Assembly (NCBI GenBank): GCA_965218195.1
Contig: OZ244593.1
Coordinates: forward strand, 3,061,413 to 3,125,412
DNA: 64,000 nucleotides
Reading direction: 5' to 3'
Source: Chloroflexota bacterium
GTDB lineage: Bacteria > Chloroflexota > UBA11872 > VXNJ01
The notes below the pieces were generated by a model that made no database searches, had not been told where the DNA came from, and saw only the letters and a program-made list of their open reading frames with translations. A program made the translations under genes and the position numbers. Positions 15,115 through 57,091 of the stretch are shown piece by piece (the first letter of the stretch is position 1; every line of letters begins with the position of its first letter).

Positions 15115-15944
15115 TCAGGCGGCGACCTTTTCTCTCCTGCTCTTCAAAAAGCGCTCCCCGTCGACGAAGACGGCTCCTTCCGCGACTTCGGCCACCAGAT
15201 GCGGCGCATCGAGGCGCCGGAATCGCGATTCCGCCACCATCAGGGTCTTCCAGATCACCGCGGTGGCATTGGCGACCTTTTTGTAACGCTTGGCCGCGGC
15301 CGTCCGCAACCGCACCGCGGCAAACGGCGACTCGATGATGTTGGTGGTGCGCAGATGTTTCCAGTGGGCTTTGGGGAAGTCATAAAAGGTGACCATGCGT
15401 TCCCAGTCGTACTCGATGAGCTCTGCGGCGCCTTCGAACCCCTTCCCTTTGCACCAGTCCTGGAACCTGCCCTTCAACCGCTCTACCTCCGCCCTGGTCT
15501 GCGCGTAGGGGATCGCGGTCAGCAGCAGCTTGCCTTCCGCCTGCCGCGACTTCGGCAGCTTGTCCAGCACGTTTACGATCCGGTGGTTCCAGCAGCGCTG
15601 CTCCTTTGCCTTCGGAAACACCTCTGCCAGCGCGCCCCAGATTCCCAGGTGCCCGTCTCCCACGACCACGGACGGGCAGTTCATGCCCCTCTCCTTCAGA
15701 CCGCGTATTAAGGACGTAAAGAACGCCTCCGCTTGGCGTCGAGCTCTGCCACGCAGGCGACGCCCACATCGCAACCCGGTGCGCGCCCCTGGCGCGCCAC
15801 AGGGCGAGATATACACGCTAGGCGAAATTGGTCGGGTTGCGGCCGGTTCTCAGCCAAAACGCGCGTGCCAGGGGGCACCTCTTTGCGAGTTAGCACGGCT
15901 GCGAATTATGGATTCTAGGTTGCACGGGAATCGTAGAAGCGGAC
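15115..15944 (-). mobile_element. IS256-family remnant. Only the C-terminal two-thirds of the transposase survives (15115 to about 15720).
   Basis: AFFTSLIRGLKERGMNCPSVVVGDGHLGIWGALAEVFP...CWNHRIVNVL...YDFPKAHWKHLRTTNIIES matches the conserved IS256/mutator core. There is no room for an N-terminal part or terminal IRs. It is cut by the IS3-family element at 15945. Confidence 0.7.
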
Positions 15945-16007
15945 TGACCTTGCCCCCGAAAACGCCCTGGATTTTGAGTAGAGTCCGTTCAATGGGAGGA
16001 GACGGAC

Positions 16008-16274
16008 ATGAGACGGAGCAGGTATCGCGAGGAACAGATCATCGGCATCCTCAAAGAGCAGCAGGCGGGGTTGCCAGCCGCAGAGCTCTGCCGCAAGTAC
16101 GGGGTCAGCGGCGCGACGTTTTACAAGTGGCGGTCCAAGTACGGCGGCATGGAGGTATCAGACGCCAGGAAGCTGAAGGGGCTGGAGGATGAGAACCGGC
16201 GCCTGAAGAAGCTGCTGGCGGAATCGATGCTGGATGTGGCGACGCTGCGCGAGCTACTTGCAAAAAACTTCTAA
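16008..16274 (+). CDS. IS3-family transposase OrfA.
   Basis: [40 protein letters not shown] with a C-terminal zipper. Confidence 0.85.
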
Positions 16275-16282
16275 CGCCCAGA

Positions 16283-17119
16283 TTGCGGAGGAAGGCCGCG
16301 GCCTGGGCGATGACGGAGACTAGTCACTCGCAGCGCCGTGCCTGCGCTCTTGTCGGGATGGATCCGAAGACTTACCGCTATGAATCGAGGCGGCCGGACG
16401 ACGCCGGCATCCGCAAGCGGTTGCGGGAATTGGCCGAGCAGCGCCGACGGTTCGGCTACCGCCGTCTGCACATCCTGCTGGCCAGGGAAGGCATCCGGCT
16501 CAATCATAAAAAGCTCTATCGCAGCTATCGCGAGGAACGGCTCACGGTGCGCAAGCGAGGCGGGCGCAAGCGGGCGCTCGGCACGCGTGCCCCGCTGCTG
16601 CTCCCCTGGAACCGCAACCAGCGCTGGTCGCTCGATTTCGTCGCGGATGCATTGGCCGACGGCAGGCGGTTCCGCATCCTGGCGGTGGTGGACGACTTCA
16701 GCCGCGAGTGCCTCGCCCGCGTCGTCGACACATCGCTGTCTGGCGTCCGCGTGGCTCGGGAGCTGGACCGCATCGTCGAGCTGCGGGGCCGCCCCCGCAT
16801 GCTGGTCAGCGACAACGGCACCGAGCTCACCTCAAACGCTAGCCTGCGCTGGCAGCAGGAACGCGGCGTTGGCTGGCACTACATCGCACCGGGCAAGCCC
16901 ATGCAAAACGGCTTTGTCGAGAGCTTCAACGGCCGCCTGCGCGACGAGTGCCTCAACGAACATCTCTTCGCCGGCCTGGCCGAAGCGCGGCGGATCATCG
17001 CGGAATGGAGGTACGACTACAACACAACACGCCCGCACACGAGCCTGGATGGGCTCACACCCAACCAGTTTGCAGCCCGCCCCAATTGGGGCCATAACCT
17101 GAAAAGATTCTACTTATGA
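16283..17119 (+). CDS. IS3-family transposase OrfB (DDE).
   Basis: It has [30 protein letters not shown] and [19 protein letters not shown] motifs. Confidence 0.85.
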
Positions 17120-17147
17120 GTGAGGGTAAGTTGGGGGCAGGGTCACC

Positions 17148-17450
17148 CTTGTTATAGATCAGCCGGAGGATGACCTCGATCATGCCTTCATAATCAATTC
17201 GATAGTCGAAGGCATGCGCACTGCCAAGTCTGGCCGTCAGATCGTCGCCGCAACTCACAATCCAAACATCCCAGTTCTTGGCGATGCTGAGATGGTCTTT
17301 CGAGTCGCGCGACAAGCGGGCGACGACGTCTGCCACATACGGAATTCAGGGGGACTTGAGCTACCTCAAGTTACCGCGGAAGTTCAGAGCCTCGAAGGCG
17401 GCGCCGAGGCCTTTGAGCGGCGCAGACAAAAATACTCAGGTGTGTCCTAG
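17148..17450 (+). pseudogene. C-terminal fragment (about 100 aa) of an ABC/AAA_21-type ATPase (Walker B and H-loop), cut at its 5' side by IS3 copy 1.
   Basis: The in-frame translation from the IS boundary reads LVIDQPEDDLDHAFIINSIVEGMRTAKSGRQIVAATHNPNIPVLGDAEMVF. It has no start or N-terminal half. Confidence 0.55.
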
Positions 17451-17836
17451 GGTAGGAGGCAACGCTCGTGTCGGTCTCTGGGGCAGTTGCGCGATTGGGA
17501 TTTGCCATGGATGAGTTCTCTGACTGACCTGCTTCCTGAAAGACGGTTACGAGGAATGGTAGAACTTGGGCAATCGGAGGGGGGGCAGATAGCAAGGCGG
17601 AAGCAGATGCTGGAGCAGGTTATCAACAAGCCACGCTTGGCCGAGGCGGTTGTAGCCGGGATTTGGATTGGGTCTGAGCCCGGTTGAAAGATCCCGGTAA
17701 CGGAGCGGTCCCTCTACCCGTGGCCGGTGGACAGCGGGGCGCTGAGGTTCGACTAGATGCGTGATGACTCGATCGGAGACCGCATGCTTGCGGCTGGCGA
17801 GGCTAGGGCTAAGGCATCGCTCTCTCGGTTGATGGG

Positions 17837-20674
17837 ATGACCCCATACGAGTTCATCACCAAGTGGCGCGCGTCGGAGCTGAAGGAGCGCTCGGCGGCGC
17901 AGGAACACTTCATCGACCTGTGCCGGCTGCTGGATGAGCCAACCCCCGCCGAAGCCGACCCGACCGGCGAGTATTACTGCTTCGAGCGCGGCGCGCGCAA
18001 GGACACCGGCGGCGACGGCTGGGCGGACGTCTGGAAACGCCACCACTTCGCCTGGGAGTACAAGGGCAAACACGCCAACCTGGACGCCGCCTTCACCCAG
18101 CTCAGGCAGTACGCCCTGGCGCTGGAGAACCCCCCGCTGCTGATCGTCTCCGACATGCTGCGGTTCCGCATCTACACCAACTGGACCAACAGCGTCAGCC
18201 GGGTCCACGAGTTCGGGTTGGACGATCTCGCCGGCGCGGCTGTGCGTAACAAGCTCAAGTGGGCGCTCTCGGACCCCGAGCGCCTGCGGCCCGGCGAAAC
18301 CCGGCAGACGCTCACCGAGCGCGCCGCGGCGGCCTTCGCCTCGCTTGCACACGGATTGCGGGAGCGCGGCCACGACCCGCAGGTGGTCGCGCATTTCGTC
18401 AACCGGCTCGTGTTCTGCATGTTCGCCGAGGACGTCGGCCTGCTGCCGAACGGCATGTTTACGCGGATGCTGGAGCACGCACGGCAGCGACCTGGTGAAT
18501 TCGCCGAGCTTGCCCGCGACCTGTTCGGCGCGATGGCCACCGGCGGCCGGATCGGCTTCGAGGAGGTCGCCTGGTTCGACGGCGGGCTGTTCGACGACGA
18601 TTCCACGCTGTCCCTGGAGAAGGCCGAGATCGAGACGGTGCTTGCGACGGCGGACCTGGACTGGTCGGAGATCGACCCGTCGATCCTGGGCACGCTGTTC
18701 GAGCGCGGGCTGGACCCCCGCAAGCGCGCGCAGCTTGGCGCGCACTACACCGACCGCGACAAGATCATGCTTATCGTCGAGCCGGTTATGGTGCGCCCCT
18801 GGCTTGCCGAGTGGCAAGCGGCCAAGGCGGAGATCGCGGCCTGTCTGGAACGGGCCGCAGCGGCCAGGTCGAGAGCGGCTCAGAACCGTCATTACGGGCA
18901 AGCGGAACGACTGCTGCGCGATTTTCTTGAACGGCTGCGGGGCTTCAAGGTGCTCGATCCCGCCTGCGGTTCGGGCAACTTCCTCTATCTGGCGCTGCAC
19001 GCGCTCAAGGACCTGGAGCATCGGGTGCAGCTTGAAGCGGACGCGATGGGCCTGCCGCTTACGTTCCCCGAAATCGGCCCCGCCAGCGTCAAGGGAATCG
19101 AGATCAACCCCTACGCCGCCGAGCTTGCCCGCGTCTCGGTCTGGATCGGCGAAATCCAGTGGATGCGGCGCAACGGCTTCTCGGAGTCGCGCAAGCCCAT
19201 CCTAAAGCCGCTCGACACCATCGAATGCCGCGACGCCATCCTCTCCCCGGACGGCGTGGAACCCGACTGGCCGGAGGCCGACGTGGTGATCGGCAATCCG
19301 CCGTTTGTTGGAGGCAAGCTCCTGCGCGGCGTGCTGGGCGGCGCATACGTGGAGGCGTTACAGCGGCTCTATGGCGACCGTATTCACGGCGAAGCCGACC
19401 TTGTATGCCACTGGTTCGACAAGGCCGAGCGCCTGGTCGCCGCCGGCAGGATTGCGCGCGCCGGCTTGGTCGCGACCAACTCGATCCGCGGCGGACGCAA
19501 CCGTTCGGTGCTGGACCGGATAGTCGAGCGCGGGGCGATCCATGACGCCTGGTCGGATGAACCCTGGGTTATCGACGGCGCGGCTGTGCGGGTATCGCTG
19601 ATCTGCTTCACTCGCAAGGACGCCGGGCTATCCGGGCGCCTGGACGGGAAGGACGCGCCACGCATCAACGCCGATCTGACCACCGGAACGGTTGATCTCA
19701 CGTACGCGGGCCGCCTCACGGAGAACGCCGGAGCCGCCTTCATGGGCGACACCAAGGGCGGCGCGTTTGACGTTACCGGCGATCTGGCCCGGGAATGGCT
19801 GGGGCTTCCCGCCAACCCTAACGGGCGGCCCAACTCGGACGTTCTCAAGCCGTGGGTCAACGGCATGAACCTGACCCGCCGTCCGGCGGGCAAGTGGATC
19901 ATCGACTTCGGATGGACGATGTCGGAGAACGACACCGCGCTCTACGAAGCGCCGTTCGCCTACATCGCGGAACACGTCCGGCCAGTGCGGCAGCGCAACC
20001 GTGAGAGCAGAGTCAGGGAGTTCTGGTGGCGACATGTGCGGCCCCGGCCCGACATGTGGCAGGCGTTGGACGGCCTGACCCGGTATATCGCCACGCCTTG
20101 TGTAGCAAAGCACCGGGTTTTTGCCTGGTACGACGTGCGTATCTGTCCCGACCACCAGCTAATCGTGATCGCCCGCGACGACGATACGACCTTTGGCATC
20201 TTGCACAGCCGGTTTCATGAGGCATGGTCGCTCAGGCTTGGCACGAGCCTGGAGGACCGACCGCGCTACACGCCGACCACAACCTTCCAGACTTTCCCGT
20301 TTCCGGAGGGGCTGACGCCCGACGTTCCCGCCCACGATTACGCGAACGATCCGCGCGCCGTGGCGATTGCCGACGCCGCCCGGCGGCTGGTGGAGCTAAG
20401 GGACCGCTGGCTCAACCCGCCCGAATGGGTGGAATGGGTTGACGAGCCCGTCCCCGGCTACCCCAGGCGCCCCGTCCCGCGCGACGAGGCCGCCGCCACG
20501 CAACTCAAGAAACGCACCCTGACCAACCTCTACAACCAGCGCCCCCAATGGCTCACCAACGCCCACGCCGACCTAGACTCAGCCGTAGCCGCCGCCTACG
20601 GCTGGCCGGCGGATATCTCGGAGGAGGATGCTTTGGGGGAGTTGTTGGAGATGAACTTGGCGAAATGCGACTGA
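17837..20674 (+). CDS. MmeI-like type IIL/IIG restriction-modification enzyme: an N-terminal PD-(D/E)xK nuclease, a gamma-class N6-adenine methyltransferase and a C-terminal target-recognition region.
   Basis: It is 945 aa. Block-wise similarity to MmeI: D-x-EYK (GWADVWKRHHFAWEYKGK), LVFCMFAED, LDWSEIDPSILGTLFE...LGAHYT, DPACGSGNFL (motif I), GIEINPYAAELARVSVWI, NPPFVGGK (motif IV) and VATNSI. Confidence 0.8.
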   Translation: MTPYEFITKWRASELKERSAAQEHFIDLCRLLDEPTPAEADPTGEYYCFERGARKDTGGDGWADVWKRHHFAWEYKGKHANLDAAFTQLRQYALALENPPLLIVSDMLRFRIYTNWTNSVSRVHEFGLDDLAGAAVRNKLKWALSDPERLRPGETRQTLTERAAAAFASLAHGLRERGHDPQVVAHFVNRLVFCMFAEDVGLLPNGMFTRMLEHARQRPGEFAELARDLFGAMATGGRIGFEEVAWFDGGLFDDDSTLSLEKAEIETVLATADLDWSEIDPSILGTLFERGLDPRKRAQLGAHYTDRDKIMLIVEPVMVRPWLAEWQAAKAEIAACLERAAAARSRAAQNRHYGQAERLLRDFLERLRGFKVLDPACGSGNFLYLALHALKDLEHRVQLEADAMGLPLTFPEIGPASVKGIEINPYAAELARVSVWIGEIQWMRRNGFSESRKPILKPLDTIECRDAILSPDGVEPDWPEADVVIGNPPFVGGKLLRGVLGGAYVEALQRLYGDRIHGEADLVCHWFDKAERLVAAGRIARAGLVATNSIRGGRNRSVLDRIVERGAIHDAWSDEPWVIDGAAVRVSLICFTRKDAGLSGRLDGKDAPRINADLTTGTVDLTYAGRLTENAGAAFMGDTKGGAFDVTGDLAREWLGLPANPNGRPNSDVLKPWVNGMNLTRRPAGKWIIDFGWTMSENDTALYEAPFAYIAEHVRPVRQRNRESRVREFWWRHVRPRPDMWQALDGLTRYIATPCVAKHRVFAWYDVRICPDHQLIVIARDDDTTFGILHSRFHEAWSLRLGTSLEDRPRYTPTTTFQTFPFPEGLTPDVPAHDYANDPRAVAIADAARRLVELRDRWLNPPEWVEWVDEPVPGYPRRPVPRDEAAATQLKKRTLTNLYNQRPQWLTNAHADLDSAVAAAYGWPADISEEDALGELLEMNLAKCD

Positions 20675-20710
20675 CAATCCGCGATCGATTCAGGCGATGA
20701 GCAAGCGGCA

Positions 20711-21577
20711 ATGAGTAGTCCTAAACGTCACCATTTTGTCCCACAGATGCATTTGAGGCGATTCGTGGACGAAAGTGGTCGGTTGTATTGGTTCAGCAAA
20801 CGTTTTTCAGACAAAGTCGTTCGTCCGTCGACTCCAGCTCAAGTTTTCTTGGAAAACGATCTTTACAACGTGTTGGACAGCGATGGAGCCAGGGATTCGT
20901 CAGTCGAGTCAGCGCTTGCGACCCTTGAATCGCAAGCAAATTTGACAATGGGGAAAATCGTGACTGCGGCCCGAGCGGGCAAGCCACCAAATCTGACAAG
21001 GGAAGAGAAATCGTTTTGGGACGTGTATTTCTGCTGCCAGTGGAGGCGTGTTCCGGACGTAATGCGGACCGTCGTATCGGAGGCGCAAATACGCGAATTC
21101 GTGTCGGAGATAACGAGGCGATACCAGTCTAGGGGCTATGAGCTGACGTCAGAGGACCGCAGGATCCTTGCTGATCCACGAGCGTTGTCGAGGATCGAAC
21201 ATGGCGCCAGAGCTAAGAGCGTTCTGATAATCACCGAAGATCTGTTACGCGTTATGGAAAACAAGGGTCTTTGTGTCGCGATAGTCACAAGCTCGAAACG
21301 TAGCTTTGTTATTGGAAGTAACCCAATCGTCAAGCTGAATCCTCCGGGGCGGACGTACCTTGCTGATCCAGACGTACAAGCGTGGCTTCCACTCGCTCAC
21401 GACGTGGCTATTACGCCTGCACTATCTCGAGGCGAAGAAAAGTTGATGGAATTCAGCGAGGGCCGAATCGTTCGTGAACTCAATGAAGCCATGTTCAAGC
21501 AAAGTACTGCAATCGCCGGGCGCTCACGAAGACTAGTCGAGTCGTTGGCTAGGAAGATGCTCGCTAGGTCCAACTAA
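20711..21577 (+). CDS. DUF4238-family protein.
   Basis: The N-terminal HHFVPQMHLRRF motif is characteristic of DUF4238. The GC is lower than in its surroundings. It lies directly downstream of the RM gene. Confidence 0.6.
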   Translation: MSSPKRHHFVPQMHLRRFVDESGRLYWFSKRFSDKVVRPSTPAQVFLENDLYNVLDSDGARDSSVESALATLESQANLTMGKIVTAARAGKPPNLTREEKSFWDVYFCCQWRRVPDVMRTVVSEAQIREFVSEITRRYQSRGYELTSEDRRILADPRALSRIEHGARAKSVLIITEDLLRVMENKGLCVAIVTSSKRSFVIGSNPIVKLNPPGRTYLADPDVQAWLPLAHDVAITPALSRGEEKLMEFSEGRIVRELNEAMFKQSTAIAGRSRRLVESLARKMLARSN

Positions 21578-22234
21578 GGGGGCAGCAGTCACTCGGAGAC
21601 CGTGCGCACGGTCAGGAGACGTGATACGTTCGAACTCCTTTTCAAGGCGCTTCGAACGTGTCTCAAGCTGCCGTTCCAGTCGCTCTAGTCCGCGCGAGAG
21701 GTTTAGCGTGAGGTCCTGGATTTCTCGCATGGTCATCTCCTCGCACCTGTCATACCGCCGGATGGGGCATTTGCGCGTCGGCTTAACGCGGTGAGGCGCC
21801 ATCCGCGAGCGGCCTGTGCGGATAACGACCACGCCGCAATCGCCATCAGTGGGCACGGCGAATATCTCGATCACAGGTATCTGCGGTTCGACGCAGTCAC
21901 GGAACACTAAATTGAGGCGCTCGGCTAGTTCCTGACACTTCGGGATGGGCGTAATTTCGGCAGCGACGGGCGGTCTACTCTCGGATTCACGGATACCCAA
22001 TAGCAGCGCGCCGCCGTAGGCATTCGCGAACGCGACGGCTTCTTCGAGTAACTCGTTTCGCGCTCTATCTCCGAGTCTGTCCCCATGCGTTATCCATCTG
22101 TCATCCGAATCGCCCTTCGTTGATAGGCGTTCCTTGAACTCGATCTGATCGCTTTCGGGGACCTGTGAATCGATCAGTTCTTTGAGATTGCTAACACCAA
22201 CCTGATCCGCAGGCTTGGAGACTACAGCGATCAT
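21533..22234 (-). CDS. AlbA_2 (Schlafen-like / divergent-AAA putative DNA-binding) domain protein.
   Basis: ESDQIEFKERLS...ELLEEAVAFANAYGGALLLGI matches the AlbA_2 core (E.KE...AFAN..GG.L.IG). Confidence 0.6.
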   Translation of the reverse strand: MIAVVSKPADQVGVSNLKELIDSQVPESDQIEFKERLSTKGDSDDRWITHGDRLGDRARNELLEEAVAFANAYGGALLLGIRESESRPPVAAEITPIPKCQELAERLNLVFRDCVEPQIPVIEIFAVPTDGDCGVVVIRTGRSRMAPHRVKPTRKCPIRRYDRCEEMTMREIQDLTLNLSRGLERLERQLETRSKRLEKEFERITSPDRAHGLRVTAAPLVGPSEHLPSQRLD

Positions 22235-22339: not shown

Positions 22340-22560
22340 CTATTCCGGAAACGGGTGGATGATCTGCTCCAGGAACATGCGGGTGCGGCCTTCCTGGGGC
22401 TTGTTGAATCTGTGGTGGGGAGTTCTGAGCTCGACGAGCATTCCCTCGTCGCAGAAGGCGATGCGGTCGGCGACGTCGCGGGCGAAGCCCATTCCGTGGG
22501 TGACGCAGAGCATGGTCGTGCCGGTGCGAGTCCGTGCTGGCGTGGGCGTAGGAGAAGGGC
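22340..22560 (-). pseudogene. 3' fragment of an ABC transporter ATP-binding protein (amino-acid/polar ABC type).
   Basis: The reverse-strand translation reads TTMLCVTHGMGFARDVADRIAFCDEGMLVELRTPHHRFNKPQEGRTRMFLEQII*. There is no upstream Walker A or Q-loop. The upstream frame is scrambled. Confidence 0.6.
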
Positions 22561-22756: not shown

Positions 22757-23960
22757 TTGTCGGTCTGTGAGGTAGACCATGGGGCACCGGGAGGCGCCAC
22801 ATTGGTCACGGATCAACAGGTAGTTCTACTGAGGCAGAAGGTAATGGAAGGGAAGACACGGCAGGCAGCGGCGGCAGCAGCGGCCATGAGCGAGAGATCG
22901 GCGCGGAAGTGGCAGCGAGGATCGTTGCCGTCGGAGAGCAAGCAGGCCAGACGGAGTTGGCGGACCAGACCGGACCCGTTCGCGGATGTCTGGGAGAAGG
23001 ACATCGAGCCGCTGCTGCGGTCCGACCGCGAGGGTGAGCTGAGCGCGACAACTATCCTCGAGTGGCTCGACGAGCGACACCGGGGCAGGTTCGGCAGTTC
23101 CCAGTTGAGGACGCTGCAGCGTCGGATCAGGGACCACCGGGCGCTTTGGGGACCTGACCGCGAGGTGTACTTCCAGCAGGACCAACCCACGCTCATCGCA
23201 CGAGAACGGCGTGGTCGAACAGAGACACCGTCGTCTCAAGAACGCCATAGACCAGGCCCTCATACTCAGGGGCAGTCGCGACTTCGAGTCGGAGGATGAG
23301 TACAGGAGGTTCGTGCGACAAGTGGTCGACCGGCGCAACCGGCTGGTGGACTCGAAGCTTCGGCGAGAACGCCGTCATCTGCGACCACTGCCGCCTGCTC
23401 CCGTGCCGGAGTACGTCAACTACCGAGCGAGGGTGCGCGGATGGAGCACCATCAGGGTGGCGAAGCGGACGTACTCGGTGCCGTCGAGGCTGATCGGGAT
23501 GGAGGTGGCCGTCCGTCTGTACGCCGACCACGTCGAGGTGTACTACAAGGGCCACCTGGTGGAGCGCATGGAGCGCTTACACGGCGCCGGCGAGGCGCGA
23601 ATCGACTACCGCCACATCATAGGATCGCTGGTTCGCAAGCCCGGTGCGTTCGCCCGGTACCGCTTCAGGGAGCAGATGTTCCCGACAGCGACGTTCAGGC
23701 TGGCATACGACGCGCTGCGTGGATGGAGAGGTGAGCGTGCCGATGTCGAGTACGTGCGGATACTGCATCTGGCCGCGACGACCATGGAGTCGAAGGTGGA
23801 CAGGGCGCTCGGGAGACTGCTTGAGTCCGGTCTGAGCTTCGACTACGCGACGGTGCGCAGGCTGTCTGCGCCGGCGCCTCCACCGGTTCCGGACCTGAAG
23901 CTGTCTGGGACAGTGGACCTCGGGGTGTACGACCGCCTGCTGGTGGGAGGCGCACCGTGA
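22757..23960 (+). pseudogene. IS21 istA, frameshifted and lacking the DDE catalytic core.
   Basis: As above. The two ORFs (22757-23299 and 23211-23960) overlap in different frames. Confidence 0.65.
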
Positions 23961-24745
23961 TGGTGGACATACACGCAGCGAGCGCAGTGGCCGAACGTGT
24001 CAGGGAGTTGTGCAGGCAGTTCAAGCTGCCCACGCTTGCGGCCGAGACCGTCGGAAGGTTCGGCGAGGCCGGACACGCCGATGCGCTCCCGACCCTTGTG
24101 GAGGTGCTGGAGCAGGAGGCTGAGGACAGGCGGATACGACGGGTGGACCGTCTGCGGAGAGCATCGAAGCTGCCGGCTGGCAAGACCTGGGACACCTTTG
24201 AACATGACAGGGTCTCGCTGAAGCTCAGACAGCAGCTCGGGAGACTAGGTGAGGGCGACTTCGCCGATCGCGGCGTCAACGTTCTGGCGTTCGGGATGCC
24301 CGGCACCGGCAAGACCCACGCGACGTGTGCCATCGGCCACAGACTGGTGGAGTCCGGCCGCTCGGTGCTGTTCATCCCCGCATACCGACTGGTGCAGGAC
24401 ATGCTGGCCGCCAAGCGAGACCTGGAACTGCCCAGGATGCTCAGGAAGCTGGACAACTTCGACCTGCTGGTGATCGACGACCTGGGGTATCTGACGCAGC
24501 GCGCCGAGGAGTCGGAGGTGCTGTTCACCCTGATAGCGGAGCGCTACGAGCGTCGATCCCTGGGGATCACCTCGAACCTGGTGTTCAGTCAGTGGGAGAA
24601 GGTGTTCGCAAACCCCATGGCGACCGCGGCAGCGATAGACAGGATCGTCCACCACTCGGTCATCCTGGAGTTCGACATGCCGAGCTACAGGACCAATGCG
24701 GCCCGGAATCGTCAGACTGACAAGCAGTCAGACCGGCAAGAATAA
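23957..24745 (+). CDS. IS21-family IstB ATP-binding helper protein.
   Basis: It has Walker A GMPGTGKTH, Walker B LLVIDDLGY and an overlapping start with istA. Confidence 0.85.
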   Translation: MMVDIHAASAVAERVRELCRQFKLPTLAAETVGRFGEAGHADALPTLVEVLEQEAEDRRIRRVDRLRRASKLPAGKTWDTFEHDRVSLKLRQQLGRLGEGDFADRGVNVLAFGMPGTGKTHATCAIGHRLVESGRSVLFIPAYRLVQDMLAAKRDLELPRMLRKLDNFDLLVIDDLGYLTQRAEESEVLFTLIAERYERRSLGITSNLVFSQWEKVFANPMATAAAIDRIVHHSVILEFDMPSYRTNAARNRQTDKQSDRQE

Positions 24746-29195: not shown

Positions 29196-32027
29196 TTATC
29201 CACCAGCGTCGAGGGACGGAGCGGCGAGCGTGTCGATGTCCACCGCGCGGGAGCGCTCGCTCGTTCCGGCCGCGTTGATCGCCCTGATCCGGTAGCTGTA
29301 GGGCGTCTCCGCCTGCACCGTGGCATCGGTATAGGTGGTGGCCGCAGTCCCGGTGTTCGCCACGAGAATGTGGAATTCGCCCTCGGCATCGGTATCGCGG
29401 TTGCGCCGGAGTATCACGTAGCCGCTGATGGAATCGTCGCCGGGGTCGTCCCAGCCGAGGAGCGCTCCGTTGAAGGCCGCCGCCACTATCAGGCGAGTGG
29501 GCTTGGCGGGCGGCTTCGCAGATGCTTGCGTTTCTTCCCGCTGCTCCTGCTTGCGCTCCACCGGGGTCGTGGTCAGCGCGGCGAGCGTGTCGATGTCCAC
29601 CGCGCGGGAGCGCTCGCTCGTTCCGGCCGCGTTGATCGCCCTGATCCGGTAGCTGTAGGGCGCCTCCGGCTGCACCGTGTCATCGATATAGCTCGTGGCC
29701 GCCGTGCCCGTGTCCGCCACCAGCGTGGTGAACTGGCCGCCGGCATCGGTATCGCGGTTGCGCCGCAGGACCACGTAGCCGGTGATGGAGTTGTCGCCGG
29801 GATCGACCCAGACGAGGATCACTCCGTTGAAGGCCGCCGCCGCCATCAGGCCAGTGGGCTTGGCGGGCGCTTGCGCCTCCAACCGGGGGCTAGTTTGTCC
29901 CCGGCGCTCAACGGACCGCTCCGCAGGTGCTTGCGTTTCTTCCTGCTGCTCCTGCTTGCGCTCCACCGGGGTCGTGGTCAGCGCGGCGGGCGTGCCGATG
30001 TCCACCCCGCGGGAGCGCTCGCTCGTTCCGGCCGCGTTGATCGCCTTGATCGAGTAGGTATAGGGCTTCTCCGCCTGCACCGTGGCATCGGTATAGCTCG
30101 TGGCCGCCGTGCCCGTGTCCGTGTCCGCCACGAGAGTGTGGAATTCGCCCGCGGCGTCGACGCCGCGGACGCGCCTGAGTATCACGTAGCCGGTGATGGT
30201 GCTGTCGCCGGGGTCGTCCCAAGTCAGGGTGACGGCGCCCTGGGACGCCTGGGCCGACAGGCCGGTGGGACTGGCCGGCGGCGAGACGAACCGCACGCTG
30301 CGTGGCTCCGGCACCCGCACCGTCACCGTCGGCAGCGGGTAGTCCTCGAAGTCGTAGTTCGACTGCGCCTGGCTCTGCGAATCCATCGTCGTGCCCGAGG
30401 CCTCGTGGCTCAGCGCCGCCGTCCCGGACGCGGAGGATCGGACGTCCACCGTCACCGTCTGACTCCGGAACCAGTTCTCGCCGGTGAACCGCAGCGTCGC
30501 CGGGGACGCGGTCGCCACGGCCGTGTTAGAAGAGCTCACCCCTATACTCACCGGGTTCGCGGTTGTGGAGTCGGACGCCGCCATCAGGCGCACCTGATAC
30601 GTCGCCGTGCCCCCCGCCGCGACCTCCAGGACCGCGTCGCCCGCGCCGCCCGCCACCTGGAGCTTCCTGCGGCCTTGCCGGTCCACCCGCAGCTCCGTCA
30701 GCGCCGGCAGCGCCTCGAACTCGTCGTAGGGCAGCGACCGCAGCGACGGGTTCTGCTGCAGCCGCAGCGTCGCGAGCGACCGCAGGCCCGCGAACACCCC
30801 GGCCGGCAGCGACCGCAGCCGGTTCTTGTTCAGGTTCAGCGTCTGCAGGCTCGTCAGCCCGCCGAACACCTCGGCCGGCAGCGACCGCAGCCCGGTGTCC
30901 GCGAGGTCCAACTCCTCCAGGTTCAACAGCCCCTCGAAGTCCTGCCGCCGCAGGCTGAGCGTGAACCCCGACTCGGTGGATGGGTTGCGGCGCAGGCCGA
31001 GGAACCTCACCTTCGCCAGATGCGTCTCGTTCACCTCGGCGCAGCCGCCCTTGAATCCGTGCACGTACTTCAGCCGCACCAGGATGCGGTCGCGGACGCG
31101 CGCCGTGCGGTCGCAGATGCCCTGGATGCGGAGCTGGTCGTTGTCGACGATGATGACCCTCGCGTGACACGGGTCGCACGCCGCGCCCTCCGATGACGCC
31201 TGGAACGCGACCACCGGCGACAGTCCGGGATCCTTTTCGAGTTTCAGTTGGATGTACTCGTCCCCCTCGATTTCCAGATCGTCAATTACCGTCAACCGCA
31301 CTTCCTTGCGGGCCGTGAACACCGAGCCGTCCGGTTCGAAGTCCGAAGGGGCGATTTCGACCCCCACGGACAGGCCATCGAAGTCCACATTGCTGGTTGC
31401 CTGGCCTTGTTGGCCGGTTCCCTTGGTGCTGAAGGCTATATGGATGCTCGCAGCGGGCACCGGCACACCGGCCGCCGTCCTGGCGACGATCGCGACAACG
31501 GTGTCGCCGTGCGCGGCGTCCTCGGCGAACCTGTACTCGGGCTGCTCGTGCCACACGGTTACGGCCGGATCGGCCACCAGGACGCCCACGGTCGCCGTAG
31601 CGGGCGTGCCCGCCACGTAGCCCGTCCCGTCCCGCACGGTCGCCGTGATGCTGCCGTTCTGCGTGACCTCGTGGCCGGCAAATTCGTCCCACGCCAACAT
31701 CCTCAGCTCTGCGGTGTCCTGGCCTGCCCCGAAGGTCACGGTTTGCAAAAGCGCCGATCCCTCCAGAAAGTCCCGGTCCTGCGTGAGCACGACGTTGACG
31801 TCCAGCTCCTCCGTGGCGACCGTGCGGGTCAGCGTGAAATCCATGTGGTCAAGCTCCGCGATGATCGTCTGACGGTCCGCCGCGATGGTCACCTCAGGCG
31901 TGGTCTGCGCCGAGACCGGCTTGGCCCCGAAGTGCAGGACCACCGCCAACACGGCGACCGGTAGGGCCAGCGCCGCTATGGCGGCGAGCAGGATGGGGAA
32001 TCGTCGTCTAGCGGTGCGAGTCATCAT
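29196..32027 (-). CDS. Secreted/surface protein (943 aa) with a signal peptide, a central LRR block and three C-terminal tandem fibronectin-III-like repeats.
   Basis: The N-terminus is MMTRTARRRFPILLAAIAALALPVAVLA. LRRs follow (L..L.L..N.L.SLP...F.GL). There are three repeats of about 120 aa (...TGY.V.RR.R..DA.G.F..LV..T.T.AT.Y.D.TV...PY.Y.I.A.NAAGTSERSR.V). Confidence 0.75.
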   Translation of the reverse strand: MMTRTARRRFPILLAAIAALALPVAVLAVVLHFGAKPVSAQTTPEVTIAADRQTIIAELDHMDFTLTRTVATEELDVNVVLTQDRDFLEGSALLQTVTFGAGQDTAELRMLAWDEFAGHEVTQNGSITATVRDGTGYVAGTPATATVGVLVADPAVTVWHEQPEYRFAEDAAHGDTVVAIVARTAAGVPVPAASIHIAFSTKGTGQQGQATSNVDFDGLSVGVEIAPSDFEPDGSVFTARKEVRLTVIDDLEIEGDEYIQLKLEKDPGLSPVVAFQASSEGAACDPCHARVIIVDNDQLRIQGICDRTARVRDRILVRLKYVHGFKGGCAEVNETHLAKVRFLGLRRNPSTESGFTLSLRRQDFEGLLNLEELDLADTGLRSLPAEVFGGLTSLQTLNLNKNRLRSLPAGVFAGLRSLATLRLQQNPSLRSLPYDEFEALPALTELRVDRQGRRKLQVAGGAGDAVLEVAAGGTATYQVRLMAASDSTTANPVSIGVSSSNTAVATASPATLRFTGENWFRSQTVTVDVRSSASGTAALSHEASGTTMDSQSQAQSNYDFEDYPLPTVTVRVPEPRSVRFVSPPASPTGLSAQASQGAVTLTWDDPGDSTITGYVILRRVRGVDAAGEFHTLVADTDTGTAATSYTDATVQAEKPYTYSIKAINAAGTSERSRGVDIGTPAALTTTPVERKQEQQEETQAPAERSVERRGQTSPRLEAQAPAKPTGLMAAAAFNGVILVWVDPGDNSITGYVVLRRNRDTDAGGQFTTLVADTGTAATSYIDDTVQPEAPYSYRIRAINAAGTSERSRAVDIDTLAALTTTPVERKQEQREETQASAKPPAKPTRLIVAAAFNGALLGWDDPGDDSISGYVILRRNRDTDAEGEFHILVANTGTAATTYTDATVQAETPYSYRIRAINAAGTSERSRAVDIDTLAAPSLDAGG
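29200..30320 (-). repeat. Three tandem DNA repeats of about 360-400 bp, highly similar at nucleotide level, encoding the Fn3-like modules.
   Basis: The near-identical stretch GAGCGTGTCGATGTCCACCGCGCGGGAGCGCTCGCTCGTTCCGGCCGCGTTGATCGCCCTGATCCGGTAGCTGTAGGGCG recurs at about 29226, 29582 and 29990. Confidence 0.8.
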
Positions 32028-43107: not shown

Positions 43108-43567
43108 ATGACAACAAACGATCGCATCATTCTCGATCAGGTTCTCGGCCAACGTCGGAGCGAAGTTGACCCAGATGCGGACGACAGTTCTTTTTTCGAG
43201 TTCTTCACCGCAGAGCAGGTTCTGAAGGATTTCGATCTCTCGTATGACGAGATAGAGTCTGGCTTGGTCGGCGACGGGGGCGATGGCGGGATAGACGCGA
43301 TATATCTGCTAGTGAATGGTGGCCTAGTTCAAGAGGACCCGGATTATGGCCGCCTGAGAAAGGACATTGCCATCGATCTGATCATCCTGCAGTCGAAGAT
43401 GCGCGCCGGGTTCCAAGAAACTCCAATCGAACGCTTTCTTACAGTCAGTAGCAACCTTTTTGACCTTTCAACAGAAGCTTCAACTCTTTCCGGCGTTTAC
43501 AATGAACGCCTTATAGAGTCAATGCAGCGTTTTCACGGCCTCTATCAAAAACTCGCCGCTTCGTTTC
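43108..43567 (+). pseudogene. N-terminal about 150 aa of an AIPR-family (abortive infection phage resistance) protein, truncated by IS3 copy 2.
   Basis: DRIILDQVL...SSFFEFFTAEQVLKDFDLSYDEIESGLVGDGGDGGIDAIYLLVNGGLVQEDPD...IDLIILQSK matches the AIPR N-terminal pattern. The ORF runs straight into the IS end at 43568. Only about 400 bp remain beyond the IS. Confidence 0.55.
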
Positions 43568-44768
43568 TGACCCTGCCCCCAACTTACCCTCACTCATAAG
43601 TAGAATCTTTTCAGGTTATGGCCCCAATTGGGGCGGGCTGCAAACTGGTTGGGTGTGAGCCCATCCAGGCTCGTGTGCGGGCGTGTTGTGTTGTAGTCGT
43701 ACCTCCATTCCGCGATGATCCGCCGCGCTTCGGCCAGGCCGGCGAAGAGATGTTGGTTGAGGCACTCGTCGCGCAGGCGGCCGTTGAAGCTCTCGACAAA
43801 GCCGTTTTGCATGGGCTTGCCCGGTGCGATGTAGTGCCAGCCAACGCCGCGTTCCTGCTGCCAGCGCAGGATAGCGTTTGAGGTGAGCTCGGTGCCGTTG
43901 TCGCTGACCAGCATGCGGGGGCGGCCCCGCAGCTCGACGATGCGGTCCAGCTCCCGAGCCACGCGGACGCCAGACAGCGATGTGTCGACGACGAGGGCGA
44001 GGCACTCGCGGCTGAAGTCGTCCACCACCGCCAGGATGCGGAACCGCCTGCCGTCGGCCAATGCATCCGCGACGAAATCGAGCGACCAGCGCTGGTTGCG
44101 GTTCCAGGGGAGCAGCAGCGGGGCACGCGTGCCGAGCGCCCGCTTGCGCCCGCCTCGCTTGCGCACCGTGAGCCGTTCCTCGCGATAGATGCGATAGAGC
44201 TTTTTATGATTGAGCCGGATGCCTTCCCTGGCCAGCAGGATGTGCAGACGGCGGTAGCCGAACCGTCGGCGCTGCTCGGCCAATTCCCGCAACCGCTTGC
44301 GGATGCCGGCGTCGTCCGGCCGCCTCGATTCATAGCGCTAAGTCTTCGGATCCATCCCGACAAGAGCGCAGGCACGGCGCTGCGAGTGACTAGTCTCCGT
44401 CATCGCCCAGGCCGCGGCCTTCCTCCGCAATCTGGGCGTTAGAAGTTTTTTGCAAGTAGCTCGCGCAGCGTCGCCACATCCAGCATCGATTCCGCCAGCA
44501 GCTTCTTCAGGCGCCGGTTCTCATCCTCCAGCCCCTTCAGCTTCCTGGCGTCTGATACCTCCATGCCGCCGTACTTGGACCGCCACTTGTAAAACGTCGC
44601 GCCGCTGACCCCGTACTTGCGGCAGAGCTCTGCGGCTGGCAACCCCGCCTGCTGCTCTTTGAGGATGCCGATGATCTGTTCCTCGCGTTACCTGCTCCGT
44701 CTCATGTCCGTCTCCTCCCATTGAACGGACTCTACTCAAAATCGAGGGCATTTTCGGGGGCAAGGTCA
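43568..44768 (-). mobile_element. IS3-family element copy 2 (1201 bp, about 98-99% identical to copy 1), inactivated by two nonsense mutations.
   Basis: The ends are the same as copy 1. orfA has TAT to TAA (..SR*R.. at 44685 region; copy 1 has SRYR). orfB has TAC to TAG (KT*R at 44330 region; copy 1 has KTYR). No target-site duplication is visible. Confidence 0.8.
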
Positions 44769-45163
44769 CTGGCTAGAGAGAAATTCCTTTCGTTGATCAC
44801 TGATCTGAACATAGGCGGCAAGCCGTTGGGAACAATTCAAGTTGAGAGAGACCTTTTGATTGAACAGCTTCATTCAACGTATCGCGGTGCTCCCAATACT
44901 ACGTCTCGGGCATATGAAAAAGCACAGAAGGCTCTTAAGCGGGATGAAGAAATGACATTTTCTGATGACGAGATCGACGCATTTCTACCAAACGAACTTA
45001 GAAGAAGCTAACGACGCCCTGCTGCGCCATCTCTACTCTCAACTTGAGTCGGGCGCGAGCAACGTTTCAAGGACTTGCACCGGAACGACGGTTGACCGCT
45101 TTGCAAATCCCTTACGCCCTCGACAACTAGAACCACTAAGTAGCTGAATTGTTGCGGTCGGCC

Positions 45164-47989
45164 TTACAAACGCCGGTTAGACACCACGGGTTCTGAGGCT
45201 AAGAGGTCGCGGAGCTTGCTCAGATTGGGCAGTGCCAGGATTTCGGAGATTCCGTCGTCCAAGGACTGCCGCGCCGGGCAATGCGCCATACCCGGCAGGC
45301 GTTCGAACTCGGCTTCAGCCAGTTGGTCGAACAGGTCCGACAGGCCGTGAAGCCGTGAGGTCGAAATTTCCCGCAGGTCCAGGACGGGCAGTTCTGAGAG
45401 ATCGGCCTTTTTCATGGCGACCCAGCCGCCTTCCGTGCTGGTCCGCTGGGCCAGAATGGTCAACAGGCCAAGGCTGGAATTCAGCCAAACCGCCAGCGCC
45501 TTCTCATGCGATACGACTTCAACCCGGACGGGCCACCAGACGTTTGAAAGGACTCGCATTTTGGACTTCATGGCGACGACTCTGGCGGTGTCGAGCCGCA
45601 GCCGTTCGGCGACGAGGAGTCGACCGGATTGCCGCCAGAGGCGTTCACCGTAACCTGGCTTTTGTCCGCCTTTTGGCCGTATCAATGGTGACAGATAAAC
45701 GTCAGGTGAGCATATGAGAGACCTCCGTTGCTCCGTATCGTGTCCCTCGACCATCGGGTAAGCAGTCGGAGAACTGGTCCTACTATATCCGTCGACGAGC
45801 CGACGTCTGTCGGGGCCGATTTGACCGAGCTCACCGAGCCGGTACAGCGCAATGTTGGCGGTATCTTCCTCACCCGGTACCCACACTACGCCGTCGTCGA
45901 GCAGGCTGAGGGCGCAGCGGGTTACATCGGCGCGAGCGAACTGCACGCCTGACCATTTCTTTCCCGCGAACTTCGATTCGGGAATCGAAACCATTTCGCC
46001 GACGTGCCGGCCGTCCACTTCCAGCAGCGCCGCGCCCGTTCCCTCGAGATTCGCCGGCGTCGTGGTGGCGATGGCCTGAGCCATCCCGGGCACATCCGAC
46101 ACGCCGTCCGGGTTCCGCCAGAGGTTGACGAAGGTGCTGCGACGCTCAACATTGACGTGTTTCTCAGGGCGGCGCGTAGCAATAAGCAGCGCCTCGGAGA
46201 GGTCGGTGCTGTCCGAAAAGTTCCAGCGCAGCGGATCGTGCGACGTAATCACCATGTCGAGGGCGAAGTCATGCTCGATTAGGGCGCGCGTCTGCCGCCA
46301 CGAGGGGCCGGTACATACGGTGGCGGGCAGCACCAGCGCCAGGCGTCCCTCGCCGGGCCGCAGCCTGGGGACCGCCGCCGCAACGAATGCGGCGCCGAGT
46401 CCGGCGGTGGCTGATGCCTGCCTTGATCTAAGGCGACGCGACAGCTCGCTTTGAAGTTTTCGCCGGTCCGCTGCGGGCAGGCTGCCGAACAGCAGGTTGC
46501 CGCCCACGGAGCGCGTGAATGGCGGGTTCATTATCGCCAGGTCCAAGTCCGGCAGCGTGGCGGTCGCACCCTCTTCCACACCCCGAGAACCGCCGCCGGA
46601 CACCCTTCCGGGTTCCCTGGTGGCTACTCGCATCTCCTCGGCGGACAGCGCGAATTGCACCGGTACGTGGGTCTCTCCCAGGAATTCCAGCGAGCCCAGA
46701 GACACCTTCGAGCCTTCAGCCCCCAGGGGCATTACGTAGAGATTCATGCGGTCGAACTGTATGTCCGGGTTCAGCATCGCCAGGCTGGTGGCGGCGAAAT
46801 GTACGGCGGAAAGCTGAACGTCGTAGCCGTGCAGGGCCTGCTCCACCATGGCTTTGTGCAGCTCGGGGGCGTTTTGGCCGCCGGCGTCGGAGTGCCGGCG
46901 CTCGACCTCGGCGGCCACCGCCATCAGCAAGGTTCCAGTGCCGCAAGCCAGGTCGGCCACGTTGAGGGATGCCGGAAATTCGTGGTCGCTCCAGTCGACG
47001 TGCGAGGGCCAGTCGTGAAACACCAGCCGGGAAAGCAGCGTGGCCGCCGGCACCGACGTGTAATAGGCGCCGGTGAACTTGGCGTCGGTCAAGAGCGTAT
47101 GGAACAGCCGCCCGGATAAATCGTGCCCCGCCAAATGACGCGTGTCTTCCATAGCCCTGACCAACGGTACGATGACCGGCGTCCGGATCTCGTCCGGCCC
47201 GTCGCCGAGCACGTCAAGGATGTTGGACGCCAACTCGAAGACCGGCACGTAGTCGATGTCGTCGCAGATGGAGCGCCAGGCCCAACGGAGTCCGGGAAGG
47301 CCATGCCCCAACGCTTCGCCGACGGTCGGAACGTCCTCATTAGCGGCGGCGAGACGGTCCTGGAAAGCGAGAGCGTTGAAGAGCACCAAACACCCGATGC
47401 GCAGGGCCGCGGCGCGGTCCCTTTCGTGATCGGTGCTGGCGATAATGTCGGCGATGCGACGGGATATCCGGGCGTGTTTGGCTATTTGTTGCGCCGCCTG
47501 TTCCAGCCCGTACCCAACGGCGGTGGCGGCGGCCACCACCCGGTCCACGCCTTCCAGTTCCAATAGAAGGGTACGCAGGTGATCGGCAAGCTCGGCTGCC
47601 GACCCTCGCCGGACGCGGCGCTCTGGCGCAATCCCGCCACGAGAGCCATGCAGCCACCATTGGAGGTCAGTGGCGGCCTCGAGGTTCGAGCGTGTGTTCT
47701 CCGTGTACTTGAGCCTGTCGGGATAGAGAACGCCAATCATTCCAAGAGCTTCGGGGAAATCTTGCAGACGTTCTTCGAGCTGCTCTTCCAGGAGGCTCGC
47801 CGCCCCCTCCCACTTGCATTCCAGGATGACTAGGTCGCCGCTTCGCAGCTCGACCCGGACATCGGGCGCGCCCTTCCGGCTGCGGCGCTCCCCCCTGGCC
47901 GATATGCCGCGCTCACGGAGCAACTCGGCTAGAAGGACATTTACGCCTTCCTCACGAATAGTTTCGGGATCGCTCTGTCGAGTGGCCAT
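45164..47989 (-). CDS. Fused restriction-modification-type protein (941 aa): an N-terminal PD-(D/E)xK nuclease motif plus a gamma-class N6-adenine DNA methyltransferase (type IIG-like).
   Basis: The nuclease core is GAPDVRVELRSGDLVILECKWEG (D...E-C-K). MTase motif I is VADLACGTGTLL. Motif IV is IMNPPFTRS. The long C-terminal region is a presumed target-recognition domain. Confidence 0.7.
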   Translation of the reverse strand: MATRQSDPETIREEGVNVLLAELLRERGISARGERRSRKGAPDVRVELRSGDLVILECKWEGAASLLEEQLEERLQDFPEALGMIGVLYPDRLKYTENTRSNLEAATDLQWWLHGSRGGIAPERRVRRGSAAELADHLRTLLLELEGVDRVVAAATAVGYGLEQAAQQIAKHARISRRIADIIASTDHERDRAAALRIGCLVLFNALAFQDRLAAANEDVPTVGEALGHGLPGLRWAWRSICDDIDYVPVFELASNILDVLGDGPDEIRTPVIVPLVRAMEDTRHLAGHDLSGRLFHTLLTDAKFTGAYYTSVPAATLLSRLVFHDWPSHVDWSDHEFPASLNVADLACGTGTLLMAVAAEVERRHSDAGGQNAPELHKAMVEQALHGYDVQLSAVHFAATSLAMLNPDIQFDRMNLYVMPLGAEGSKVSLGSLEFLGETHVPVQFALSAEEMRVATREPGRVSGGGSRGVEEGATATLPDLDLAIMNPPFTRSVGGNLLFGSLPAADRRKLQSELSRRLRSRQASATAGLGAAFVAAAVPRLRPGEGRLALVLPATVCTGPSWRQTRALIEHDFALDMVITSHDPLRWNFSDSTDLSEALLIATRRPEKHVNVERRSTFVNLWRNPDGVSDVPGMAQAIATTTPANLEGTGAALLEVDGRHVGEMVSIPESKFAGKKWSGVQFARADVTRCALSLLDDGVVWVPGEEDTANIALYRLGELGQIGPDRRRLVDGYSRTSSPTAYPMVEGHDTEQRRSLICSPDVYLSPLIRPKGGQKPGYGERLWRQSGRLLVAERLRLDTARVVAMKSKMRVLSNVWWPVRVEVVSHEKALAVWLNSSLGLLTILAQRTSTEGGWVAMKKADLSELPVLDLREISTSRLHGLSDLFDQLAEAEFERLPGMAHCPARQSLDDGISEILALPNLSKLRDLLASEPVVSNRRL

Positions 47990-49198: not shown

Positions 49199-49441
49199 TG
49201 CGGAGCAGTCCCGTCAGCACACTTCAACTATGAAGAGCGGCTTCAGATTAGCCGAACTTCCGGTTGAGCACCCTCGGACAGAACGAAGGGACCAATCCAC
49301 ACGCCGTATCAAGCTCAGCGCCGGCGTTTGAAGTTGATCGTCTTTTCCTGCCCGCAAAGGCGGGACAAAGGAGTTTGCTATCGACTTAGCCTCTAAGTCG
49401 GGACTGTAGTAATCGCACCGTCCTATGCCGAGCGCGCGCAG

Positions 49442-53006: not shown

Positions 53007-53183
53007 CGTTGTCCTCCCGCCGCTGTCTCTAGCCGTCTCGCCTCAGCATCGCTGATTGAACCCACATCGTACTGTCGTTGTGTACCACGAAGGCTCATCA
53101 GCCCCTCGTATCCACACCGTGGAGATGGACCTGCGGCGCCCGGGGGGAAACGCATGCGTCCACGGCCTGAAACCGAGCAGAGA

Positions 53184-53219: not shown

Positions 53220-53412
53220 AATGCCGGCCGAGCCGAGGCAACAACAGATTTAGCCACCCTATTCACACATAGGGTTTGCTATTGCCGCCGACCAGAGCAT
53301 TGGACAGGTGGACCTTCTTCCTCCTCAGGAGCCTGCTAGTGCCACCGCCCAACACCTGCTCACCATCTTCTCTGGTTCAAATCGCGGCCTGCGAGCCGTC
53401 GAGGGCAGCGGG

Positions 53413-56989: not shown

Positions 56990-57091
56990 CGTTGTCCTCC
57001 CCCAGCTGTCCCCGGGTGCCGCGCTTCATCAACGCTTATCGACCCCACATCGTACTGTTCTGGGAGCTCTAGTTCCGTCCAAACATAGTGC

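Follow-up and report, generated by a model that had tools for sequence, protein, structure and literature searches.

An MmeI-like restriction-modification gene in a probable mosaic defence island eroded by insertion sequences

We analysed a stretch of 64,000 nucleotides (hereafter, the window) from a Chloroflexota bacterium (assembly GCA_965218195.1, contig OZ244593.1, forward-strand positions 3,061,413 to 3,125,412), focusing on a gene for an MmeI-like restriction-modification enzyme and on the genes packed around it (Table 1). An initial annotation of this DNA, made from its sequence alone, had described an insertion sequence (IS) of the IS3 family, the 3' fragment of an ATPase gene, the MmeI-like gene, a DUF4238 gene and a convergent AlbA_2 gene, and had proposed that ATPase, MmeI-like enzyme and DUF4238 once formed a single undescribed system. 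A map of open reading frames (ORFs) and Pfam searches recovered the four genes and the IS3 element in the same places or a few bases away. Two points had been missed: the AlbA_2 ORF is truncated, and the IS3 copy lacks a target-site duplication. GC content is 66.5% in the MmeI-like gene and 51.6% in the DUF4238 gene, with 61.2% for the window.

Table 1. Features at and around the MmeI-like gene, in window coordinates
Feature	Position	Strand	Basis or remark
Truncated IS256-type transposase gene	15115-15816	-	ORF map and Pfam
IS3-family element copy 1, 1201 bp	15945-17145	+	orfA 16008-16274, orfB 16283-17119; Pfam HTH_Tnp_1, rve/rve_3
3' stub (last ~100 codons) of a TrlF-family PHP-AAA ATPase gene	17146-17450	+	NF045780, PADLOC Ppl, alignment with the related locus L084
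386-bp spacer, ATPase stub to MmeI-like gene	17451-17836	+	Common to L084 only
Intact MmeI-like ORF, 945 aa	17837-20674	+	Pfam, PADLOC, PDB 5HR4
36-bp gap between MmeI-like and DUF4238 genes	20675-20710	+	Kept in the related loci L086/L087
Intact DUF4238 ORF, 288 aa	20711-21577	+	PF14022
3'-truncated AlbA_2/Schlafen-like ORF, 233 aa, convergent	21533-22234	-	PF04326
Relic of an ABC-transporter ATPase gene, 175 bp	22352-22526	.	Similarity to the related locus L088
IS21 element	22757-24745	+	IstB and Mu-transposase C-terminal Pfam matches

The 945-aa protein is predicted to be an intact, single-chain MmeI-family enzyme of Type IIL/IIG which combines restriction, modification and specificity, as had been proposed. 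Comparison with homologues showed it to be full length. Pfam assigned MmeI_N (40.5 bits), MmeI_hel (48.8 bits), MmeI_Mtase (97.2 bits) and MmeI_TRD (29.2 bits), each above its cut-off; this is 27 bits for MmeI_N, MmeI_hel, MmeI_TRD and MmeI_C, and MmeI_C, with 21.1 bits, remained under it. The PADLOC model REase_MTase_IIG scored 999 bits, and the structure of MmeI in the Protein Data Bank (PDB 5HR4) was matched with E = 6.5e-41, the D...ExK residues being aligned. The nuclease motif D64...E74-Y-K76 (nucleotides 18026-18064) aligned with the nuclease region of 5HR4, methyltransferase motif I (DPACGSGNFL) occupies residues 374-383 (nucleotides 18956-18985) and motif IV (NPPFVGG) residues 487-493 (nucleotides 19295-19315). 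As in MmeI (919 aa), the order in the window protein (945 aa) appears to be nuclease, helical spacer, gamma-class N6-adenine methyltransferase, target-recognition domain and, with its sub-threshold Pfam score, C-terminal domain, and both carry DPACGxGNFL and NPPF motifs, although the two sequences are only distantly related. Two other identities were rejected. NCBIfam models for BREX PglX reached 29 bits (cut-off 400) and 20 bits (cut-off 900), and for DISARM DrmMI the PADLOC match covered residues 482-830 only, with at most 261 bits compared with the 999 bits of REase_MTase_IIG; the neighbours of the gene, also weighed in this test, are IS elements, DUF4238 and AlbA_2. Enzymes of the MmeI family cleave about 20/18 nucleotides from an asymmetric site and modify one strand only. 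From this family knowledge we infer the activities of the window enzyme: its gamma-class N6A methyltransferase would modify a single adenine, on one strand, of an asymmetric recognition site, and its N-terminal D...ExK nuclease would cleave unmodified DNA about 20 nucleotides from that site.

More than 8000 database proteins matched the MmeI-like protein at E <=1e-20, the best 120 being 74-100% identical, and a scan of species-representative genomes yielded at least 592 relatives of the gene. The best 80 of these (L001-L080; 68-79% identical) made up the locus survey used below. They occur in metagenome-assembled genomes (MAGs) of Chloroflexota, Latescibacterota, Binatia, Acidobacteriota, Gemmatimonadota, Alphaproteobacteria, Gammaproteobacteria, Actinomycetota, Spirochaetia, Thermodesulfobacteriota, Candidatus Entotheonella and Candidatus Poriferisodalis, and several of the genomes have two copies. 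When the other loci discussed here are included (L001-L088), the protein keeps 68-94% identity in MAGs belonging to at least 10 phyla. The presence of Entotheonella and Poriferisodalis, together with the overall mix of taxa in the record titles, suggests that carriers of this gene form a sponge-symbiont community; a literature search for MmeI in sponge symbionts gave just one general review. Unlike MmeI, the window protein belongs to a very large and closely similar clade that spans many MAG phyla, often with several copies per genome and often with a tightly linked but variable gene downstream. Its closest relatives (L083, 94% identical; L082, 91%; L081, 89%) have only positions 17830-20664 in common with the window and are surrounded by other neighbours. 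DNA homology between these copies begins 3-7 bp before the ATG and ends 10-27 bp before the stop codon. Because it ends so near the limits of the ORF, the bare MmeI-like ORF appears to behave as an exchanged unit.

The DUF4238 protein, which begins with MSSPKRHHFVPQMHLRRF, matched PF14022 with 76.9 bits over residues 6-266 (cut-off 27). Its database version (P0253, 276 aa) begins 12 codons later and lacks the conserved PKRHHFVPQ motif (window 20711-20746); the ATG at 20711 is to be preferred. Thirty-seven homologues, 34-79% identical, kept the HHxVP, QWxRxP and SFxIGSxP motifs. No solved analogue of the fold was found, PHROG gave no match to DUF4238, and no model in the PADLOC library matched either DUF4238 or AlbA_2. 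The initial annotation correctly regarded these two domain types as defence-island genes; its statement that DUF4238 has no defined role is out of date. Previous studies reported that a DUF4238 member from a P2 hotspot in E. coli, the one member known to protect as a single gene, confers strong resistance to T7 (Rousset et al. 2022, PMC9122126) and that a TIR-DUF4238 fusion occurs among E. coli defence systems (PMC11350192), and they list DUF4238 among the defence systems of Pseudomonas islands (PMC12629846). The window protein resembles the system of Rousset et al.: it is a single-domain protein of similar size (~290 aa), and the same Pfam family covers its full length. No MmeI-like gene adjoined the DUF4238 homologues on plasmids or the one on a soil contig (one locus of a single-protein metagenome scan).

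In two related loci, L086 and L087, the MmeI-like gene is 82% identical to that of the window, and a DUF4238 gene of 78% identity begins 36 bp downstream of it. Homology to L086 is unbroken over positions 17832-21586 (3.75 kb) and ends on both sides, the flanks being different. Locus L088 has a 61% identical DUF4238 gene preceded by the last ~100 codons of an MmeI-like gene alone, and its homology also has its right end at 21586. In L064, one of the 80 surveyed loci, a 71-78% identical MmeI-like gene precedes a very divergent DUF4238 gene (34% identical). The two genes thus form a real mobile cassette of 3.75 kb (17832-21586). The gap between them is 33-36 bp across cassettes. Because the 36-bp gap of the window has no promoter or terminator consensus, DUF4238 is probably co-transcribed with the MmeI-like gene.

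The survey of 80 loci placed this pairing in a wider context. A DUF4238 neighbour was found in 1/80 loci (L064) and an AlbA_2 neighbour in 3/80, and the upstream ATPase was found in none. A co-directional ORF of at least 200 aa lay within 36 bp of the MmeI stop codon, or overlapped it, in 13 of the loci. The ORFs immediately downstream included TIR-like/Nuc_deoxyrib_tr proteins (four loci), an AbiL/PDC-M38A-like ATPase, a UvrD/GajB-like helicase, HEPN (Hypoth_Ymh), DUF5677, a PDC-S45-like trypsin/protease, MazG_C and DUF2971. In a rough neighbour-joining tree, the MmeI genes linked to DUF4238 fell into two separate clades, among genes with other partners or with none. The position just 3' of this MmeI clade is a variable slot that swaps defence genes, and the cassette of the window is best read as one of its occupants. 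Because the slot is variable, the pairing of MmeI-like and DUF4238 genes is weak evidence of a system.

Upstream of the MmeI-like gene, translation of positions 17145-17453 gave TLVIDQPEDDLDH...ATHNPNIPVLGDAE..., with a stop at 17450. The initial annotation had recognised the C-terminus of an ATPase here but could not place it; its family can now be named. The 100-aa stub matched the NCBIfam model NF045780 (TrlF_fam_ATP) with 126.5 bits over model positions 847-943 of 944 (cut-off 350) and the PADLOC Ppl model over positions 798-889 of 894 (1.6e-10). Its close homologues were all called as short pieces, and they led to three contigs (L084, L085 and L093). In L084 the order is an integrase, an ORF with PHP and AAA_23 domains (719 aa), an AAA_21 ORF (160 aa) and a frameshifted MmeI-like gene. 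An assembly frameshift has divided a single ATPase gene into the PHP/AAA_23 and AAA_21 ORFs, and the stub is 98% identical to the C-terminus of this intact-length gene. DNA homology between L084 and the window is continuous over 17146-20662 (86.9%) and begins at the first base past the IS3 end, which bears out the claim that the ATPase gene was cut there. L084 is also the uninterrupted syntenic locus that the initial annotation had suggested looking for, with a whole-length, frameshift-split ATPase gene next to the MmeI-like gene. When the two frames of the L085 homologue were joined, the repaired protein (909 aa) matched the TrlF model end to end with 382.8 bits (cut-off 350), and the Ppl equivalog NF042955 with 200.7 bits (cut-off 1000). 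The stub comes from the TrlF family, the sister family of the anti-phage protein Ppl, which is described as a single-gene defence system with PHP 3'-5' exonuclease and NTPase functions (PMC12904381). Its intact relatives, with PHP, AAA_23 and AAA_21 domains, pass the TrlF cut-off, whereas the window keeps only the C-terminal stub and so carries a fragment of a family member rather than a member itself.

The N-terminal ~780 aa of the ATPase, including the PHP domain and Walker A, were found nowhere in the whole window. Without its PHP nuclease and Walker A, the stub is presumably non-functional. The adjoining IS3 copy 1 shows two features of its family, namely two ORFs (HTH_Tnp_1, then rve) and TG...CA terminal inverted repeats (TGACC...; ends TGACCTTGCCCCC / TGACCCTGCCCCC). 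An inverted copy at 43568-44768 shares 99.3% identity with it across 1201 bp. Neither copy has a target-site duplication, the flanks being GAC/CCC at copy 1 and CAG/GAA at copy 2. The alignments point to an IS3-associated event that removed the 5' ~2.4 kb of the TrlF-like gene. This was more probably a deletion or a rearrangement than a clean insertion, because the 5' part is absent from the window and copy 1 lacks a target duplication. If the segment between the two IS3 copies were inverted, the orientation with respect to the integrase at 57 kb would again be like that of L084. A simple inversion of this kind was rejected, as the flanking triplets match neither directly nor crosswise; the 5' part of the TrlF/Ppl-type gene is also not beside IS3 copy 2. 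The history of rearrangement is more complex than that.

Among the relatives examined, a TrlF-like gene adjoins an MmeI-like gene in L084 only. No TrlF-like gene occurs within 10 kb in any of the 80 surveyed MmeI loci, nor in L081-L083 or L086-L088. The ATPase genes of L085 and L093 are 84-88% identical and are followed in both by transposase-like ORFs; homology of L085 to the window ends at the ATPase stop codon, and there is no MmeI-like gene within the short downstream stretches on these two contigs. TrlF genes on plasmids were solitary in six of the eight contexts looked at. The 386-bp spacer behind the stub, which L084 shares, is missing ahead of the MmeI genes of L081-L083 and of L086, and it showed no Rfam match, no excess of RNA folding (z = 0.5) and no sigma-70 consensus. 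A spacer ORF at 17487-17687 and a 49-aa ORF of L084 showed no better conservation as protein than as DNA and were treated as non-coding. A promoter and terminator scan gave no promoter consensus and one terminator-like site, inside the ATPase stub, fewer than in shuffled sequence.

The AlbA_2 protein at the other end of the locus retains an intact domain (PF04326, 47.9 bits over residues 27-168, cut-off 25.3). In three Chloroflexota loci (L007, L009 and L016) a convergent AlbA_2 gene lies tail-to-tail after the MmeI-like gene, and residues 1-219 of the window protein are 64-67% identical to these proteins of 430-441 aa. The last 14 codons in the window are unrelated sequence running antisense into the end of DUF4238, and DNA homology stops at ~21626. 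By comparison with these relatives, the gene is truncated, its 3' half having been lost at the right edge of the DUF4238 cassette. Beyond AlbA_2 itself, the full-length type (430-441 aa) matched nothing in Pfam, PADLOC or NCBIfam.

We therefore read the region, with a probability of about 75%, as a mosaic, IS-eroded defence island in which independent defence genes have come together at a shared recombination hotspot, rather than as one system. Gene identities, truncation points, cassette boundaries and the variable contexts of the genes are direct observations, and from them we infer a possible order of events. A TrlF-family gene would once have adjoined the MmeI-like gene in this lineage, and an IS3-associated event would then have taken ~2.4 kb of it; AlbA_2 would have lost its 3' half where the DUF4238 cassette ends. 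DUF4238 may now serve as a second, autonomous anti-phage layer beside the restriction enzyme. Several points weigh against such independence. The 386-bp spacer aligns with that of L084 without gaps at ~90% identity, so that the junction between TrlF-like and MmeI-like genes is conserved; the neighbourhoods of the closest homologues were taken from long-read contigs that have low coverage and contain frameshifts; and the recurrence of the MmeI-DUF4238 pair in several backgrounds, with a tight and conserved spacer, could reflect functional coupling and not hitch-hiking.

This coupling might mean that the MmeI-like enzyme and DUF4238 form a functional two-gene system, with DUF4238 as an operonic accessory and, in one version, as a guard effector in the style of PrrC. 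PrrC is the guard effector of EcoprrI and fires when phage anti-restriction proteins disable the restriction enzyme; T7 encodes such an anti-restriction protein. The absence of promoter and terminator signals from the 33-36 bp spacer fits this idea, as do the unbroken 3.75-kb homology between different flanks and the presence of the pair in the window, in L086/L087, in L064 and, with an MmeI remnant, in L088. The strong activity of one tested DUF4238 protein against T7 (PMC9122126) and the TIR-DUF4238 fusion of E. coli (PMC11350192) could be taken the same way. However, DUF4238 accompanies just one of the 80 related MmeI genes and none of the three closest, L088 retains it although the MmeI gene is almost wholly deleted, and it acts alone in E. 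coli and occurs on plasmids without an MmeI-like gene. Many unrelated defence genes occupy the same slot, and the GC contents of 51.6% and 66.5% point to separate origins. We consider the two-gene system unlikely, and the same holds, to a similar or slightly greater degree, for a functional link between the MmeI-like enzyme and its downstream partner. A broader form of the idea, of which we are a little more doubtful, is that the MmeI 3' end is a dedicated docking slot at which diverse effectors (DUF4238, TIR-like, HEPN, AbiL-like) are co-transcribed as guards that fire on anti-restriction. PrrC/EcoprrI-type islands are similar to the window in that a restriction-modification gene is the anchor against which other defence genes are packed, but here the partner gene varies between genomes.

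It was also considered whether a TrlF-TrlG pair of the Photorhabdus/Yersinia type, invaded by the MmeI-DUF4238 cassette, left the two truncated genes behind. The name TrlF comes from trlR-trlF-trlG, the temperature-restriction locus (TRL) of Photorhabdus (PMC7554251), and the TRL operon resembles a defence-type pair of a PHP-ATPase and a Schlafen-like protein. The stub is of the TrlF family, and the TrlG homologue on plasmid pYR3 of Yersinia ruckeri (L098 1945-5699; PMC7554251) is an AlbA_2 protein with a C-terminal HATPase_c_4 domain whose gene overlaps trlF; on a Burkholderia plasmid, a gene annotated as 'ATP-binding protein' directly follows trlF. The window protein has an intact N-terminal AlbA_2 domain like that of TrlG. 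Yet trlF and trlG are co-directional and overlapping, whereas AlbA_2 here is convergent and 4 kb away. The full-length AlbA_2 type has no HATPase_c_4 domain, the window protein has lost its own C-terminal half, and it gave only a marginal local match to the pYR3 TrlG. In addition, the TrlF-like genes of L084, L085 and L093 have no AlbA_2 gene, this lineage having no TrlG partner after TrlF; L007, L009 and L016 combine MmeI-like and AlbA_2 genes without TrlF; and plasmid TrlF genes are mostly solitary (6/8). A derivation from a TrlF-TrlG pair therefore appears very improbable.

Even less can be said for the proposal of the initial annotation that ATPase, MmeI-like enzyme and DUF4238 were one three-gene system before IS3 arrived. 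The three genes are co-directional in the window, ATPase and MmeI-like genes are syntenic in L084, and MmeI-like and DUF4238 genes in L086, but all three occur together in the window alone. L084 has DUF4062-type genes and no DUF4238 downstream, and upstream of the pair in L086 (the same arrangement being without ATPase in L087) lie a DUF3644 gene and a transposase relic. The ATPase is missing from all 80 MmeI loci, the ATPases of L085 and L093 have no MmeI-like gene in the short stretches that follow, and both DUF4238 and Ppl, of the sister family, act as single genes. Because intact relatives show ATPase and DUF4238 as separable neighbours in variable contexts, as the initial annotation had itself foreseen might be the case, the linkage of these two genes fails, and the three-gene system is largely refuted by the comparative data.

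That DUF4238 and AlbA_2 are an unrelated prophage remnant is hardly credible: the low GC of the DUF4238 stretch, the first validation of this family from a P2-prophage hotspot (PMC9122126) and a weak match of AlbA_2 to a PHROG 'DNA helicase' (1.2e-5) would agree with it, but DUF4238 has no PHROG match and is co-inherited with the MmeI-like gene as a cassette, AlbA_2 stands tail-to-tail with MmeI-like genes in three other genomes, and the flanks examined contain no phage structural or replication genes.

The wider surroundings were examined as well. The module at 57080-60552 encodes a tyrosine integrase (57092-58096) together with a large serine recombinase (58259-59932). Counterparts with 81% identity lie beside the defence cargo of L084 and L086, and in both the homology ends at 57080, which is likely to be the cargo junction of an integrative island. 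Because the recombinase module adjoins defence cargo in L084 and L086, with homology ending at that point, the 15-57 kb stretch resembles the cargo of an integrative defence island after rearrangement. To the right of AlbA_2, the relic at 22352-22526 is 88.6% identical to positions 13772-13947 of L088, within a gene annotated as ABC_tran which sits 3 kb downstream of DUF4238 there. It represents further erosion, beside the IS21 element, and hints at an older chromosomal context common to the window and L088.

Other genes of the window were noted in passing. Positions 49429-53075 and 53400-57058 form a tandem duplication (77% identity). In each copy a gene resembling McrC (403-409 aa, Pfam McrBC) is paired with an AAA_5 gene resembling McrB (786-790 aa), so that two adjacent McrBC-type systems are predicted for the segment from 49.4 to 57.1 kb. 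An AbiU-like ORF (43108-43599, + strand; PADLOC 1.5e-41) runs into IS3 copy 2 after ~150 N-terminal residues, and the 80 codons beyond this copy (44769-45011) had no PHROG match; this is probably another IS-associated truncation. An ORF of 941 aa (45164-47989, - strand) has an NPPF-type methyltransferase motif, no Pfam match and weak matches to MAD2 and Type II methyltransferase models. The 943-aa protein encoded at 29196-32027 (- strand) combines leucine-rich repeats with fibronectin type III domains, and its gene contains internal DNA repeats; eukaryotic-like repeat proteins of this kind are common in symbionts.

Every part of the locus belongs to a known family: the MmeI-like enzyme, DUF4238, the TrlF/Ppl-type stub and the AlbA_2 stub. 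What they form is apparently an ordinary IS-eroded island in a sponge-symbiont community. The analysis corrects an over-reading, in that adjacent defence-type genes do not make a system when intact relatives show the pairs to be separable, and it puts names to two of the parts, the ATPase stub being of TrlF/Ppl type and DUF4238 a validated anti-phage family. If the docking-slot idea were true, the cassette would be one case of a design that joins a restriction enzyme to an interchangeable backup effector. The locus would be a convenient natural test bed for the coupling of restriction enzymes with abortive-type genes.

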